The notes beneath the pieces are model-generated. The model was not told where the DNA came from, did no database searches, and saw only the letters and a program-made list of their open reading frames with translations. Below are positions 2,352 to 19,776 of a stretch of 20,000 bases of DNA, piece by piece (the stretch's first letter is position 1; every line of letters starts with the position of its first letter). Made by a program: the position numbers and the translations under genes. The DNA is taken from IMG/VR virus record IMGVR_UViG_3300042391_000264. One strand, given 5' to 3'. The stretch is from an uncultured virus (IMG/VR IMGVR_UViG_3300042391_000264) (Duplodnaviria; Heunggongvirae; Uroviricota; Caudoviricetes).

Positions 2352-2600
2352 TCAGTCTTTGTAGCCGCCACCAGCGGCTTTGTAACGTTTAGCCATCAAT
2401 TGGGCCTTACGGGCCGACCACTGACCTGCGCCTGTGCCTTGCACTGCTGCGGCTTTGATGCTGTTAAAAATACGCTTGCGAAGACCGGGCTTGGTGTAGT
2501 TGCCCGCTTCATTGACCTTGCCGCCTTCAGCCATCTTGACGGCTTTAGCTTTGGGTATTTTCTTCGGGTTTATGGCCCCCATGCCACGGCTGGACATCAT
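2352..2600 (-). CDS. DUF5872-like protein, N-terminal half (82 aa)
   Basis: NYTKPGLRKRI...GQWSARKAQLMAKRYKAAGGGY matches the recalled first half of DUF5872. It is preceded by a basic MAEGG-containing leader. Confidence 0.7.
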   Translation of the reverse strand: MMSSRGMGAINPKKIPKAKAVKMAEGGKVNEAGNYTKPGLRKRIFNSIKAAAVQGTGAGQWSARKAQLMAKRYKAAGGGYKD

Positions 2601-2602
2601 GG

Positions 2603-2782
2603 TTACACCATCCGGCCTTTTGTGTGGCCCTTAGAGATGCAGCCATCAGCACGAGTGACACCACCGGAAGCCAATTTCTTCACTGGTTCGTCCACAGGGA
2701 CTGAGTCAGGGTACGTCTTGGCCTTTGCCTGCTTTGGCTTGGCCACGGGCTCGTCCACTGGGGTATCTTTGGGGTATTTCAT
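2603..2782 (-). CDS. Small protein with the shared C-terminal tag (59 aa, below the ORF-track cutoff)
   Basis: Hand translation: MKYPKDTPVDEPVAKPKQAKAKTYPDSVPVDEPVKKLASGGVTRADGCISKGHTKGRMV*. It fills the gap between its neighbours; the ATG directly abuts the upstream TAA. Confidence 0.85.
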   Translation of the reverse strand: MKYPKDTPVDEPVAKPKQAKAKTYPDSVPVDEPVKKLASGGVTRADGCISKGHTKGRMV

Positions 2783-3010
2783 TTAGCACATCTTTCCACG
2801 GGTTTTGCCTTTGGTGGCGATACCGTCTGCACGTTTAGAAGCAGATACAACGCCACCTTTAGCCTTAGAGACCGGAGGTTTGTTGCGGTTTGCCATTTGC
2901 TCCATGTTCAAAATTGCTTGTTTTTGGCGTTGATCAACTAAAGCCTTTGCAGCAAACTCCTCGCGGAGTTGCGCTAACTTTTGTTTAATTTCCTCAGACG
3001 GCTGTGCCAT
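2783..3010 (-). CDS. Small protein with the shared C-terminal tag (75 aa)
   Basis: Start moved to ATG 3010, 1 nt after the upstream TGA. Helical N-terminus; ends KAKGGVVSASKRADGIATKGKTRGKMC. Confidence 0.85.
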   Translation of the reverse strand: MAQPSEEIKQKLAQLREEFAAKALVDQRQKQAILNMEQMANRNKPPVSKAKGGVVSASKRADGIATKGKTRGKMC

Positions 3011-3011
3011 A

Positions 3012-3506
3012 TCAGCACATCTTCCCACGAGTTTTGCCTTTGGTGGCGATACCGTCTGCGCGAGAAGAAGCTGAACCGCCAGAAGCCATCTTCTTGACTT
3101 TTCCACCACGTTTCATACCTTCTTCGTCCATAGAAAGTGAGCTATTAAGCGGAACCGAACCTTGTGAAGTTCGTGGGGCCAACGCCGATGGAGTGTAACG
3201 AGCCTTGTAGCCGCGCATTGACTCTTCAGAATCTGCGTTTTTGTACTTATCAACCGCTGCCTTAGTAGCGCCCGCCATTTTTTGCCGCGCCATAGCAGAA
3301 GTTTCTTCGGGTGCATTTCTTTCTGCGCTTTTGAGAGCAGAAATCATATCGCTTTGTTTACGCATACCTGAATCACGGGCAGCTTTTTTTGCCGCTCCAG
3401 ATTCGTCAGCCGTCTCGGTAGTGTATTTTTTACCGTTGAACTCAAAAGTTTTATCTCCTGCTTTACGAGCAGCCGCAAACGCGGAACCAAATTCTGATTT
3501 AGCCAT
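3012..3506 (-). CDS. Protein with an N-terminal 'F..AF..AR..G...F.FNGK.Y.T' module and the shared C-terminal tag (164 aa)
   Basis: Begins SEFGSAFAAARKAGDKTFEFNGKKYTT; ends MKRGGKVKKMASGGSASSRADGIATKGKTRGKMC. Confidence 0.85.
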   Translation of the reverse strand: MAKSEFGSAFAAARKAGDKTFEFNGKKYTTETADESGAAKKAARDSGMRKQSDMISALKSAERNAPEETSAMARQKMAGATKAAVDKYKNADSEESMRGYKARYTPSALAPRTSQGSVPLNSSLSMDEEGMKRGGKVKKMASGGSASSRADGIATKGKTRGKMC

Positions 3507-3508
3507 GA

Positions 3509-3955
3509 TTACTTCACCCCTTTCATTTTGATCTGGGTACCTTTGGTCTTGCCACGCTGAGCAATACCATCGCCGCGTTTAGAGGTCATGCCGCCAGAAG
3601 CCATCTTCTTGACTACACCACCTTTTTTCATGCCCGCAGAATATCCGGGGTTGTTAACATTTGCGTTAATTCGGTTTTGTCTACCTGCTGCATTTTGTAC
3701 ACCGGGGTCGTACAGCTCACCAGTCTCAGTGTTACGGCGAAGTGTTGACAAAGTACCTTCTTCATCGCGGATTTCGCCCAAGTCCACAGGCTTAACTTCC
3801 ACAGGCTTAGCTTCTACGGGCTTAACATCCATACTTCTGCTTTTAACCACGTCTTGGGCTTTGGCTTTGTCTTCGCCCTTGCCCCTAGTAGCCATATAGG
3901 CAAGACCGGCCAATGCGGCTAAAGCAGCTAAATTTCCGGTTTTTTTGCTTGCCAT
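3509..3955 (-). CDS. Protein with an N-terminal hydrophobic helix and the shared C-terminal tag (148 aa)
   Basis: AAGGA SD; LAALAALAGLAYMA; KPVE-type repeats; ends MKKGGVVKKMASGGMTSKRGDGIAQRGKTKGTQIKMKGVK. Confidence 0.85.
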   Translation of the reverse strand: MASKKTGNLAALAALAGLAYMATRGKGEDKAKAQDVVKSRSMDVKPVEAKPVEVKPVDLGEIRDEEGTLSTLRRNTETGELYDPGVQNAAGRQNRINANVNNPGYSAGMKKGGVVKKMASGGMTSKRGDGIAQRGKTKGTQIKMKGVK

Positions 3956-3964
3956 GATGAGTCC

Positions 3965-4492
3965 TTAACAGGCTCTGCCGCCAGATTTCATCTTGATCAT
4001 TGCGCCCTTGGTCTTACCCTTGACAACAACACCATCAGGCTTGGAGCTGGTTTTAACAGAGCCCATCTTGGTCATGCCACCATCTTTGAGGCCAGCGTGG
4101 GCTTTAGAAGCGGGTTTGCCAGCATGTTTGGCAAGTGCGGCTGTCATGCCGCCAGAGGCCATCTTTTTCATACCCATTTCGGACTTCTCGTGTTTGATCA
4201 TGGATTTAGGAGCACCGGCTTTTTTCATGAAGCCGATTTCTTTACTAACCATTGCTTTAGATTCTTTCATATCGCCACCTTTGTTAAAAAGTTCTGTCTT
4301 ACCTTGACGAGTTTTTGGCTCGTTTACCTTCTGAAGATCAGGTCTGGTTTTAGACCCACCAAACTTAACGCTTTTGCTTTTCTCGCTGAAATCCTTGGCT
4401 ACAGACACAGGCACGCCCGCCTTCTTGGCAAACGCTGGGTTGTGTGCTGCGGCATCCATAAACCGCTTTTGCTTGTCACTTGTCGCTGGCAT
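3965..4492 (-). CDS. Lys/Met-rich protein with the shared C-terminal tag (175 aa)
   Basis: Start moved to ATG 4492, 1 nt after the upstream TAA. MPATSDKQKRFMDAAAHNPAFAKK...; contains MASGG and LKDGG; ends KPDGVVVKGKTKGAMIKMKSGGRAC. Confidence 0.85.
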   Translation of the reverse strand: MPATSDKQKRFMDAAAHNPAFAKKAGVPVSVAKDFSEKSKSVKFGGSKTRPDLQKVNEPKTRQGKTELFNKGGDMKESKAMVSKEIGFMKKAGAPKSMIKHEKSEMGMKKMASGGMTAALAKHAGKPASKAHAGLKDGGMTKMGSVKTSSKPDGVVVKGKTKGAMIKMKSGGRAC

Positions 4493-4493
4493 A

Positions 4494-4682
4494 TTAAACC
4501 TTAACGATCCAGCCTTTGCCAAGCACAAAGCCGACAATCAACATACCAATCCAAATAAGCGCTTTTTCTACAACGGTCTTACCAACTTTTTTATAGAACT
4601 CGCCAGACATCTCTTCGATAGCCAGTTTCGCCGCTTTTCTGGCGATGGCTTCTTCGCGGTCTGTTAACGTAATTTCGGTCAT
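4494..4682 (-). CDS. Small single-pass membrane protein (62 aa; possible holin or membrane accessory protein)
   Basis: C-terminal hydrophobic segment ALIWIGMLIVGFVLG; tightly packed in the operon. Function is inferred only. Confidence 0.75.
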   Translation of the reverse strand: MTEITLTDREEAIARKAAKLAIEEMSGEFYKKVGKTVVEKALIWIGMLIVGFVLGKGWIVKV

Positions 4683-4683
4683 T

Positions 4684-4938
4684 TCAGCACTTCCATCTTG
4701 CTAGTGAAGCAGCCTTACGGGTAGGCTTGCCTTTTTCGTCTTTCATCGGGCCGGGCATACCGCTCATACGGGCGCAGAACGAATCCTTGCGTTTACCACC
4801 TTGGGGCTGTGGAGCCTTCAGGTTACTACCCGTAGCAGCGTTGTACTTGGCACGGCCTTTGGCAGTCAAGCCCGCTCCCTTGGAGACGGGTAGCTTTTCG
4901 CCACGACCTACTGCAAGGGATGGGGTTTTCTTAGCCAT
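4684..4938 (-). CDS. DUF6321-like small basic phage protein (84 aa)
   Basis: Start moved to ATG 4938, overlapping the upstream stop. GLTAKGRAKYN..TGSNLKAP...RKDSFCARM...LARWKC is a recalled phage family signature. Confidence 0.75.
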   Translation of the reverse strand: MAKKTPSLAVGRGEKLPVSKGAGLTAKGRAKYNAATGSNLKAPQPQGGKRKDSFCARMSGMPGPMKDEKGKPTRKAASLARWKC

Positions 4939-5420: not shown

Positions 5421-5441
5421 TAAAAACGGGGCCGAAGCCCC
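5421..5441 (-). terminator. Intrinsic terminator with a cUUCGg tetraloop
   Basis: Minus strand GGGGC-TTCG-GCCCC-GTTTTTA, about 10 nt after the stop of 5451..5999. Confidence 0.75.
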
Positions 5442-5450
5442 TTGAGTTGA

Positions 5451-5999
5451 TTAGGAGTCTGCGAACGGTGTAGCGACAGTGCCGGAACCAATAACATTCC
5501 CAGTCACCATGTACTTGTCAGCAGCAATCGCCACAATCTGAACCCATGTGCCAGCAACGCCGCCGGTAGTTGTACCGTTCAAGTTGATGAAGTCATTGGA
5601 AGAGCCGTTAGCAGAGAAAGCAACCACAGCACCAGATGTGTCTGAATCAATAGACATTACAGCGCCAACGTACAAGTCACCAGAAGCAGCGGTAACACCT
5701 ATTTTCAACGAGCTAGTAGAGATAGTTGTAGGCACCCAGATGGTGTAGACAACGCCTTCGTTGTTCAGTGTATTGGGGTCTTGACCGGGGCCAGACGTGG
5801 TCGGGTTGGTCGAAACATTGATTGCGGGGAGCGTCAATGTGAGTGCAGCGGCCAAAGAGCCACCGACAGAAATGATACGACCGCCGTGAGCTTCTGGGCT
5901 TAGTGTGGTGCTGGTTGTAATTTCAACAACAGAGGCGGGGCCTTGTTGATAGATACCGCCCAATGAACGAACTGGGCCTTGAAACGTAGTACGTGCCAT
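5451..5999 (-). CDS. Putative minor capsid/decoration protein (182 aa)
   Basis: AAGGA SD; Thr/Ser/Gly-rich beta composition; MARTTFQGPVRS...LNGTTTGG...ATPFADS; directly downstream of the major capsid gene. Confidence 0.8.
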   Translation of the reverse strand: MARTTFQGPVRSLGGIYQQGPASVVEITTSTTLSPEAHGGRIISVGGSLAAALTLTLPAINVSTNPTTSGPGQDPNTLNNEGVVYTIWVPTTISTSSLKIGVTAASGDLYVGAVMSIDSDTSGAVVAFSANGSSNDFINLNGTTTGGVAGTWVQIVAIAADKYMVTGNVIGSGTVATPFADS

Positions 6000-6009
6000 A
6001 ATTTTTCCT

Positions 6010-6080
6010 TACATACAAGTTAGGCGCATTAGTCTGTATGTAGTCAGCCGGGACTGTCTAATGCACCGGAAAGCCCGGAT
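6010..6080 (-). ncRNA. Candidate structured cis-regulatory RNA in the 5' UTR of 5451..5999
   Basis: 10-bp stem GGUGCAUUAG/CUAAUGCGCC (6058-6067 with 6023-6032), inner AGUC/GACU hairpin, and two possible pseudoknots: UACAUACAG/UUGUAUGUA and CCGGG/CCCGG. Confidence 0.6.
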
Positions 6081-6087
6081 TAGCAGC

Positions 6088-6115
6088 AATATACACTTTT
6101 TCTGCGGCTTGTCAA
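6088..6115 (-). promoter_or_regulatory. Sigma70-like promoter
   Basis: Minus strand TTGACA (6115-6110), 16-nt spacer, TATATT (6093-6088), immediately after the capsid terminator. Confidence 0.65.
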
Positions 6116-6116
6116 C

Positions 6117-6141
6117 AAATAAAAAGGGGGCCGAAGCCCCC
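6117..6141 (-). terminator. Intrinsic terminator after the major capsid gene
   Basis: Minus strand GGGGGC-TTCG-GCCCCC-TTTTTATTT; same core as the hairpin at 5428-5441. Confidence 0.85.
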
Positions 6142-6178
6142 TCTCGCATAGCCCGTTTGTGGCGAGCTACTGGTTCGT

Positions 6179-9215: not shown

Positions 9216-9629
9216 TTACGATGCACGCGTAATACCACGCGGGTCTTCCACAACTGCTTCAACCGAGTCATCGTTGATGATCCGGAATTCACGGCCATGA
9301 ATTTTCAGGCGAGTTCCTGAATTTGGTCGGACGATGACAAAGTCACCTTCCTTGCACGACGGCCCACTGGGGAACCGGGTTTTGTCTGCGTATGCGTCAG
9401 GGCCCAACTTCACGACGAACAGAACAGGGGTAAGCACCTCTTCATACATCATGGATTGGCTGGACTTTACGATGCCTACTTCACTATTAGCGAACGCCTC
9501 CATAGCTTCGGGGACTACGCAAAGAAGCATAAATCTCTTCGGATCAGGCAGTTGCTTCGCCTTCTCCTCAGCTGATTCGTTCAGAATCCCCGAAAGGTCT
9601 ACCGCAGCGACATTAAAATCAGTCATCAC
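9216..9629 (-). CDS. groES: GroES/Cpn10-like co-chaperonin
   Basis: GIV mobile-loop segment, VVKLGPDAY, CKEGDFVIV, GTRLKIHGREFRIINDDSVEAVV. Start is GTG 9629 or ATG 9626. Confidence 0.88.
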   Translation of the reverse strand: MMTDFNVAAVDLSGILNESAEEKAKQLPDPKRFMLLCVVPEAMEAFANSEVGIVKSSQSMMYEEVLTPVLFVVKLGPDAYADKTRFPSGPSCKEGDFVIVRPNSGTRLKIHGREFRIINDDSVEAVVEDPRGITRAS

Positions 9630-13850: not shown

Positions 13851-14598
13851 AAGGCTTTTCCTGCTCGGCGGGCTCGGCGGGCTCAACTTCCTCGACCATA
13901 GGCAACTTGAGTCCCAACTCTTCGTCGATGTCGATGTCAATCGCGCTGGTATTCGCACCATGCGCCAGCAGCATCTTACGCACCTTATCCTTGATGGCCT
14001 TATCAAGATCGGCAACTGAGCCGTAGTTGATAGTAATCTCAGTCTTCTCCGTGAAGAGGCCCACATCGCTGATCTTGCCCAACATCTCTGTGGCCTTGAT
14101 CTCAATACGCGGGTCGCCACACATAGACAAATCCAACAACTTGTTGGTAATCACCATACGTAGCTCAGATACATCGGCCACCGTATGGGCGTTGTACTCA
14201 TTGAGCATGGAGCGGATCCGCTCCGCAACATTGCCTTCATATAACTTGGGTGGATTTACGGGCGTGTCCTCGGCCAGCGGATATTTCCTCGGCCTACCGG
14301 GCTTGCGCTTAGTCGGCGCTTCGGGGGACATCGCTTCTTCAAACTGTTGCTTTGCCTTCTGGGCAAACGCTTGAAACACTTTGTCAGCAACGGCCTGATC
14401 GTCAGTGTCTTGCTCGTCTGAGGAAGTAGAGAAACCTGATTCTTCTAATAAGCTCTGCCCGCTGTGCCCGCGCAGTCCTTCTAGGAGCGCAGCAGTGTCG
14501 CCCGCTATCTGCATGTTCTCACGCAAAGTCGTTGCTGCCTCCGGAACTAGATCGGTAGGTAGCGGCGTTAGTTTGTCTGGCTCAATATGTAGAGTCAT
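13840..14598 (-). CDS. Putative terminase small subunit with an AT-hook (about 252 aa)
   Basis: First gene of the late operon, overlapping terL; KRKPGRPRK; IKATEMLGKISDVGLFTEKTEI resembles terS C-termini. Start is uncertain (ATG 14598 or GTG 14616). Confidence 0.65.
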   Translation of the reverse strand: MTLHIEPDKLTPLPTDLVPEAATTLRENMQIAGDTAALLEGLRGHSGQSLLEESGFSTSSDEQDTDDQAVADKVFQAFAQKAKQQFEEAMSPEAPTKRKPGRPRKYPLAEDTPVNPPKLYEGNVAERIRSMLNEYNAHTVADVSELRMVITNKLLDLSMCGDPRIEIKATEMLGKISDVGLFTEKTEITINYGSVADLDKAIKDKVRKMLLAHGANTSAIDIDIDEELGLKLPMVEEVEPAEPAEQEKPYET

Positions 14599-17659: not shown

Positions 17660-17691
17660 TACTTGACATTGTCAAGTATGTGTGGTACAAT
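17660..17691 (+). promoter_or_regulatory. Near-consensus sigma70 promoter with an operator-like palindrome over the -35
   Basis: TTGACA (17663-17668), 17-nt spacer, TACAAT (17686-17691) with TG extension; palindrome TACTTGACA-T-TGTCAAGTA (17660-17678). Confidence 0.85.
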
Positions 17692-18622: not shown

Positions 18623-18647
18623 CAAACCGACATGGTGTCGGATTGTT
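18622..18647. promoter_or_regulatory. Palindromic element, copy 1
   Basis: ACAAACCGACA-TGG-TGTCGGATTGT(T) between a stop codon and the SD of the AAA gene. Confidence 0.65.
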
Positions 18648-19754: not shown

Positions 19755-19776
19755 ACCGACAAGTTGTCGGATTGTT
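19753..19776. promoter_or_regulatory. Palindromic element, copy 2
   Basis: AAACCGACA-AGT-TGTCGGATTGTT; arms identical to copy 1. Confidence 0.65.

Follow-up and report, generated by a model that had tools for sequence, protein, structure and literature searches.

Pseudoknots in the leaders of ribosomal protein mRNAs, such as Escherichia coli rpsO/S15, are translational operators, and SAM-II, SAM-V, preQ1-II, and preQ1-III are pseudoknotted riboswitches that act on translation. The Mu-gpT-DE RNA (RF03012), which reportedly originated in Weinberg et al. 2017, is a 53-position candidate RNA that Rfam types as an sRNA, with no function cataloged. Its name is absent from the main text of PMC5737381. 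In supplement file 8 of PMC7657543, the authors' alignment of this RNA has 10 of 11 pairs covarying, versus 5 of 9 in Rfam, and may include more than the Rfam seed. In phages, T4 gene 32 is described in PMC10690425 as autoregulated through a leader pseudoknot.

Here we analyzed a 20,000-nucleotide stretch of DNA from an uncultured virus of the Caudoviricetes (IMG/VR record IMGVR_UViG_3300042391_000264), called the window below, in which a structured leader precedes a probable capsid spike gene. Like the T4 gene 32 and rpsO/S15 operators, this leader has a pseudoknot in the 5′ leader beside the ribosome binding site, a placement that fits a protein repression model. Unlike them, it has two pseudoknots and an embedded hairpin and precedes a product that is no known nucleic acid-binding protein; the likeness is positional, with no homology seen. 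It shares with SAM-II/SAM-V and preQ1-II/III an H-type pseudoknot in which the final helix extends to the Shine-Dalgarno sequence but differs from them in having no Rfam match, other conserved bases, and a virion gene as its probable target. As a protein operator would, it lies in cis and is linked to the gene that it would regulate, and, as in a riboswitch, its expression platform overlaps the ribosome binding site. By comparison of loci and cores, the RNA in the window is a new, larger architectural variant of the orphan Mu-gpT-DE family.

RESULTS

The leader in the window contains four helices. In the window, the minus strand carries a module of phage head and packaging genes, which encode terminase, portal, a GroES-like protein, and capsid. 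The GroES-like cochaperonin gene (9216 to 9629, minus strand) lies between the portal gene and a 332-amino-acid gene and is kept in cultured relatives. The window's capsid is 62 to 65% identical to those of the cultured pelagiphages HTVC023P and HTVC027P, 63% identical to that of DSL-LC04, and 57% identical to those of roseophages CRP-901 and CRP-902. Between capsid and spike genes, the leader (6078 to 6010) is a four-helix RNA occupying about 75 bases 5′ of the spike gene, whose AUG is at 5999 (Table 1).

Table 1. Positions of the leader, its flanking signals, and the neighboring genes in the window
Feature	Position	Strand	Remarks
Major capsid protein gene, 305 aa	6179..7096	-	Pfam Phage_capsid_4, E 6e-16; Mu-like_gpT, E 7e-9; PHROG major head protein, E 4e-24
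Intrinsic-terminator-like hairpin and U tract 3′ of capsid gene	6122..6145	-	
-35 hexamer	6110..6115	-	Perfect in the window; 16-nt spacer to -10
-10 hexamer	6088..6093	-	Predicted +1 at about A6081 (inferred)
PK1 5′ strand	6074..6078	-	Pairs with 6052-6048; alternative here is hairpin P0 with 6069-6066
P1 5′ strand	6058..6067	-	10 bp with 6032-6023, one G-U
Conserved unpaired A between P1 and P2	6057	-	A in 235/239 unique elements; partly by construction, this base being one that the parser scored
P2 hairpin	6045..6056	-	3 bp, 6056-6054 with 6047-6045; loop carries PK1 3′ strand 6052-6048
Junction strand	6033..6044	-	Conserved AC 6044-6043, PK2 5′ strand 6042-6035, conserved GA 6034-6033
P1 3′ strand	6023..6032	-	Complements 6067-6058
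PK2 3′ strand	6010..6017	-	Pairs with 6042-6035; adjoins Shine-Dalgarno on its 5′ side
Shine-Dalgarno	6006..6009	-	From sequence; conserved location, -9 to -15
Probable virion spike or decoration protein, 182 aa, conserved N-terminal TFxGP arm	5451..5999	-	From model fold and gene position
Second terminator-like hairpin, 3′ of spike gene	5428..5441	-	From sequence of the window

An earlier note made from the window alone had described a terminator, promoter boxes with a 16-nt spacer, an enclosing stem with one G-U pair (P1), and a Shine-Dalgarno sequence, all of which are present at their positions. The inner 4-bp hairpin that it had drawn (6055-6052 with 6045-6042) does not hold, since all four pairs occur in only 16 of 201 unique long elements; this register needs U6042, where most relatives have G. 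With P2 at 6056-6054/6047-6045, the four helices occupy separate bases, and most of the competing overlaps proposed earlier vanish. One alternative, P0, remains.

Taken by itself, the window's sequence gives little sign of structure. The minimum-free-energy z score of the 86-nt leader is -0.49, and that of a 61-nt portion is -1.72; an 8-bp Watson-Crick helix is present in 9 of 500 shuffles. Thus, in the single sequence, structure is not beyond chance, and we judge the element to be real because its homologues covary.

All four helices covary among homologues. We assembled 454 sequences, including the window, from five scans of viral contigs (best 80 of each), one scan of genome contigs, and 11 of 23 cultured-phage matches. 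The start of the downstream gene family is present in 352 of these, 344 of which have at least 95 nt upstream. Using a parser that scored only P1, P2, and the junction bases, we found the element core upstream of 302 of the 344 gene starts, including that of the cultured pelagiphage HTVC023P, compared with 1 of 101 shuffles. These cores represent 239 unique elements (201 long and 38 short), and their carriers are many lake and ocean phages. Among the 42 loci that the parser missed, 29 have a capsid-to-gene spacer of at most 63 nt. Of the other 13, the long-form covariance model matched eight, six strongly (L088, L109, L145, L148, L150, and L431) and two weakly (L432 and L358). The approximately 29 relatives with the short spacer belong to one clade and carry the gene without the RNA, implying that the RNA is dispensable there.

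For covariation, we aligned 90 of the 94 nonredundant long elements with MAFFT, leaving out two with long P2 insertions (L029 and L306) and two without PK2 before the Shine-Dalgarno sequence (L211 and L213). In this alignment, P1 pairing was 96%, and 9 of 9 pairs had two-sided changes, while P2 was 100% paired, with all four Watson-Crick types at its middle pair; these counts lean toward the model because a parser that requires pairing picked the sequences. PK1 and PK2 were each 71% paired, their register being shifted by linker length. The covariation score of the alignment was 0.689, versus 0.228 when shuffled and about 0.1 in slid registers, and the RNAalifold consensus gave identical P1 and P2.

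In an anchored register, PK1 forms in 184 of 201 long elements with 18 distinct complementary strand pairs, which bears out the CCCGG/CCGGG pairing proposed from the window. A five-base PK2 forms in 166 of 201 with 22 strand pairs. The 9-bp pairing that the earlier note had placed against the Shine-Dalgarno sequence corresponds to PK2, but its ninth pair takes the conserved junction base G6034, and the conserved helix is 5 to 8 bp. PK1 helices reached a score of at least 5 in 156 of 164 cases with their own partner, versus 367 of 2,460 with a swapped partner; for PK2, the figures were 161 of 164 versus 889 of 2,734. On a FastTree capsid tree of 170 tips, the PK1 strands changed 44 times each, together in 44 of 44.

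An independent, RNA-first search of metagenome contigs used a pattern that fixed the 5′ half only and drew on 80 listed of 120 stretches, 5 of which were truncated. Among the matches listed, 71 were unique, with P1 having 10 of 10 pairs in 59 and PK2 at least 5 bp in 71 of 71. All 75 analyzable matches listed precede the spike gene family (63 by motif test and 12 with a THLGPW-type arm). The covariation of all four helices, which the earlier note had named as the test to apply to homologous intergenic regions, indicates that the leader is a real, evolutionarily conserved RNA.

Even where capsid identity to the window falls to about 40%, the core is retained. Only about 8 to 10 nucleotides are near invariant, several of them demanded by the parser, and these could serve tertiary packing alone. 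In most long elements, the loop between P1 and PK2 is only 4 to 6 nt, against a P1 of 9 to 10 bp. Given this loop, it is not certain that P1 and PK2 form at the same time; PK2 may be strained and hence switchable. P0 is possible in 85 of 184 elements, comprising 78 of 79 in the window's own PK1 class and 7 of 105 others. We rejected a universal P0/PK1 switch because P0 is nearly confined to this one sequence class.

Some loci carry other structures. The long-form covariance model found no match in phage 023Pt_psg01 or Pag-Yong1. The 023Pt_psg01 leader (L170) looks by eye like a variant of the element. Pag-Yong1 (L169, 3403 to 3510) has a G+C-rich leader before an annotated minor capsid gene, in which several helices are possible, one of them onto the Shine-Dalgarno sequence. 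About 45 nt 5′ of the spike start, L217 and L241 have a small hairpin with P2-like closure, followed by AC, without P1 or pseudoknots; this may be a pared-down relic of the element. When five records were searched with the model, each capsid module had one copy, and the record with two such modules had two. That record, G005 (L456 and L459), has two different capsid-HNH-RNA-spike modules near its two ends and is possibly a chimeric contig.

The short form and Mu-gpT-DE share a core with the leader. Rfam scans gave no match at the element in the window (up to E 10) or in 18 loci (up to E 5), and scans across the window and 29 loci gave none at the long element from any family, including riboswitches and ribozymes. 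The RF03012 gathering cutoff of 49 bits was not reached at the element in the window or in five records; over these records, RF03012 gave weak matches only, as it did in 13 of 14 control genomes. With the same Rfam library, it scored 72 bits at the same locus of roseophage CRP-902. The Mu-like_gpT match of the capsid is what we took as the lead to this family. The leader itself has no Rfam match, but it is related to a known RNA at the same locus with the same core.

Both RNAs lie between a Mu gpT-like capsid gene and a TFxGP-arm gene, ending at the next start codon. Both have P1, a single A, a C-G-closed P2, an AC...GA strand, and the P1 3′ strand in their consensus. The long form differs in having a P1 of 8 to 13 bp (4 to 5 in most short ones), PK1, and a PK2 upstream of the Shine-Dalgarno sequence. 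The P1 3′ strand lies over the Shine-Dalgarno sequence in 38 of 38 short elements and in 0 of 201 long ones. In 37 of 38 short elements, the junction strand forms 4 to 6 bp with the stretch spanning the start codon and codon 2. Where codon 2 encodes alanine (n = 26), GCC is present in the junction strand in 26 of 26; where it encodes glycine (n = 12), GCC is absent in 12 of 12 and a C run stands instead (Fisher P = 3.7e-10, kinship ignored). The long form has no such link between junction strand and codon 2. This result implies that the short form uses the same PK2, reaimed just past the end of the Rfam model, which has no pseudoknot, ends at the AUG, and hence lacks the pairing over the start codon.

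On the capsid tree, the long and short forms are interspersed, with the nearest long-form capsids 74 to 94% identical, and exchange requires 6 changes, against a shuffled minimum of 29. L211 and L213 are intermediates, with PK1 and a long P1 but a short-form junction strand. A separate local hairpin appears possible by eye at the L211 Shine-Dalgarno sequence. The two covariance models miss each other: the long-form model found 0 of 16 short elements, bar one partial match (E 0.6), and RF03012 does not detect the long form.

Full-text literature searches returned no description of the long form. No match was found among the 10,006 candidate viral RNAs of PMC10690425 in supplement files 3, 5, and 6 and, by names only, file 4; the element may still be among the candidates. 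A blastn search of the region against cultured phages matched the terminator alone.

The RNA probably starts at its own promoter and travels with the downstream gene. The earlier note had called the leader promoter driven. The -10 box and its spacing are conserved, but the perfect -35 hexamer is specific to the window: a TTG-started -35 match of at least 4 of 6 occurs in 17 of 155 relatives. A -10-like hexamer is present in 155 of 184 elements, versus 54% of shuffles, and its presence by itself says little. It lies 7 to 9 nt before PK1 in 129 of 155, a spacing that is flat in shuffles, and A stands at the inferred +1 in 83%. From this spacing and the A at +1, the transcript probably begins 1 to 3 nt before PK1. 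Six long elements without PK1 by eye (L341, L343, L346, L352, L361, and L430) are also without a -10-like box. In metatranscriptome contigs of 4 of 22 runs, the element was covered in two and hardly or not in two; these are assembled contigs without strand, start, or level, and DNA carryover is possible.

A terminator-like site is present in 126 of 140 relatives whose element directly follows the capsid gene. At 69 of 302 loci, at least 400 nt separate capsid and RNA, and the interval holds HNH-like genes (a rough motif test gives 18) or others. At such separated loci, the RNA stays with the downstream gene, with the -10 box in 38 of 44 and an adjacent terminator in 2 of 44. We therefore rejected a 3′ element of the capsid gene, given that the RNA follows the downstream gene when insertions intervene. 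HNH-like and other genes are repeatedly inserted directly 3′ of the capsid terminator (L002, L004, L020 to L024, L151, and others), and the interval from capsid stop to RNA is an insertion hotspot.

The downstream gene is predicted to encode a capsid spike. The gene has no Pfam match and no useful PHROG match, and its protein has 3,130 relatives. A first structure model was poor (pLDDT 50); one built from a 93-sequence alignment was all beta (pLDDT 88), with the capsid spike knob of Pseudomonas phage Pa223 as the best Foldseek hit (E 1.4e-4). Superposition on this knob (gp52 C-terminal, PDB 9ny6) gave Z 10.4 and an RMSD of 2.2 over 100 aligned residues, and a capsid spike knob fold is predicted on this basis. 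A baseplate protein tied at Z 11.0, and baseplate and tailspike domains scored Z 9 to 11. Because such domains match equally well, the proposed capsid location rests on gene position and on the annotations of relatives, where genes at the same position are called cement protein or minor capsid protein. Like gp52, the protein has an N-terminal attachment arm and a knob; unlike gp52, with which it shares 13 to 14% identity, it has no triple beta-helix. Residues 2 to 41 of the Pa223 spike are described as fastening this spike onto the capsid (bioRxiv 2025.06.11.659172). Solved structures, searched by sequence with the spike family, the DSL-LC04 gene, a 205-amino-acid gene, and the capsid, gave nothing significant, and the Atlas gave unnamed viral clusters only.

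The 320 complete downstream proteins form 14 clusters, 91 to 405 amino acids long, whose common part is mainly the N-terminal TFxGP-type arm; from this we infer a capsid-anchoring arm joined to a display domain that can be swapped. One identical RNA core stands before proteins of many different lengths, and two arm classes (TFxGP and THLGPW) follow 4 of 94 cores. These pairings argue against the body of the product as the ligand of the RNA.

DISCUSSION

On comparative sequence grounds, the leader probably controls the amount of spike protein made. The earlier idea of a doubly pseudoknotted cis-regulatory leader of a virion protein gene is upheld by the covariation, the -10 spacing, the linkage, and the spike-like fold, and what fell away were its inner hairpin and most of its overlaps. 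In 193 of 201 long elements, the 3′ end of PK2 is at -18 to -6 from the AUG, and in 164 of 192, its 3′ strand lies within 1 nt of, or over, the Shine-Dalgarno sequence. A helix is thus placed on the ribosome binding site in both architectures, which favors translational control over self-cleavage.

The account that we prefer, with confidence just short of even, is a ligand-responsive OFF switch of translation initiation on the spike mRNA, with PK2 as the OFF helix, the junction as the binding site, and a conserved protein other than the spike body as the ligand. A late promoter 3′ of the capsid terminator would give a monocistronic spike message. PK1 would pin the 5′ end to the P2 loop and so preorganize or protect the RNA, and the conserved A, AC, and GA at the junction of P1, P2, and PK2 would form the recognition site. 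Ligand binding would stabilize PK2 and block 30S loading (OFF); when ligand is absent, the weak PK2 would open (ON), this being the presumed direction of switching. The likeliest ligand would be a protein that is conserved, for example the major capsid protein or a different head assembly protein, and spike output would thereby be tied to head assembly. It is possible, if doubtful, that the long form and Mu-gpT-DE are two architectures of one unrecognized class of phage translational switches, in which the junction would sense a metabolite or the capsid protein and dose a swappable spike.

The same occlusion could instead serve a metabolite- or ion-sensing riboswitch whose junction recognizes a small molecule as a signal of the host's state late in infection. 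A pseudoknot that ends at the Shine-Dalgarno sequence and conserved unpaired junction bases agree with this, as does a module exchanged freely among phages of different hosts, and glutamine riboswitches are predicted in some marine phages in PMC9004378. We consider a riboswitch unlikely, however, in that no Rfam riboswitch matched across the window and 29 loci, few bases are invariant, and the regulated gene encodes a virion protein without a metabolic link. An attenuator or stabilizer that needs no ligand is also improbable to us. There, PK2 (in the short form, P1) would fix initiation at a low rate, keeping spike below the capsid level, and PK1 would shield the 5′ end from decay. The loss of the -10-like box in the six elements without PK1 ties PK1 to the transcript 5′ end, and some relatives use a plain hairpin or direct coupling only. 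But those six cases are few and related, a plain hairpin would suffice for attenuation, and the junction frame is unchanged between the two architectures and still present at about 40% capsid identity.

Autorepression by the spike through its conserved N-terminal arm, which would be free only when spike exceeds capsid binding sites, would make use of the sole part common to the 14 downstream clusters, one that is always coinherited with the RNA and whose counterpart in Pa223, residues 2 to 41, anchors that spike to the capsid according to bioRxiv 2025.06.11.659172. The arm is, however, short and mostly uncharged, and TFxGP and THLGPW arms alike follow identical cores (4 of 94), making this highly unlikely. 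A small self-cleaving ribozyme or a trans-acting or packaged RNA is suggested by the compact double pseudoknot with few invariant unpaired A, C, and G bases and by Rfam's sRNA type for Mu-gpT-DE, yet it is the most improbable of the readings. The helix order differs from that of HDV-like ribozymes, each pseudoknot can be lost separately, the short form pairs into coding sequence, and no terminator separates RNA and gene in the window. At the element, no Rfam ribozyme matched; the sole ribozyme row was drz-agam-1 at 4871 to 4936 (E 7.5).

A structured RNA at the ribosome site of a variable surface protein would represent widespread posttranscriptional control of virion composition, and, as a ligand-sensing switch, it would set the spike dose in a phage group that ranks among the most abundant in oceans and lakes; in bioRxiv 2019.12.14.876532, HTVC023P-type phages are reported to rank first in abundance among known marine viral groups. 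An orphan Rfam family would gain a concrete role, that of start codon pairing by its junction strand beyond the last position of the model. A metabolite-sensing version, if true, would be a new riboswitch class in lytic phages, and a capsid-sensing version would be an assembly sensor. The cultured carriers HTVC023P, HTVC027P, CRP-902, and DSL-LC04, together with an RNA of 55 to 80 nt with compensatory pairs, make these readings directly testable.

Elsewhere in the window, a run of short basic proteins with repeated motifs of the KKMASGG and ADGIAxKGKTRG types is encoded at 2352 to 4537 (minus strand); these are apparently paralogous and perhaps internal virion proteins. A 15-bp palindromic motif has three exact copies (14133 to 14147, 18627 to 18641, and 19756 to 19770), against 0.17 expected by chance at one mismatch, and these are possible operator sites. 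A near-consensus sigma-70 promoter (11 of 12, with TG) lies at 17663 to 17691 (plus strand) in the region of plus-strand genes.
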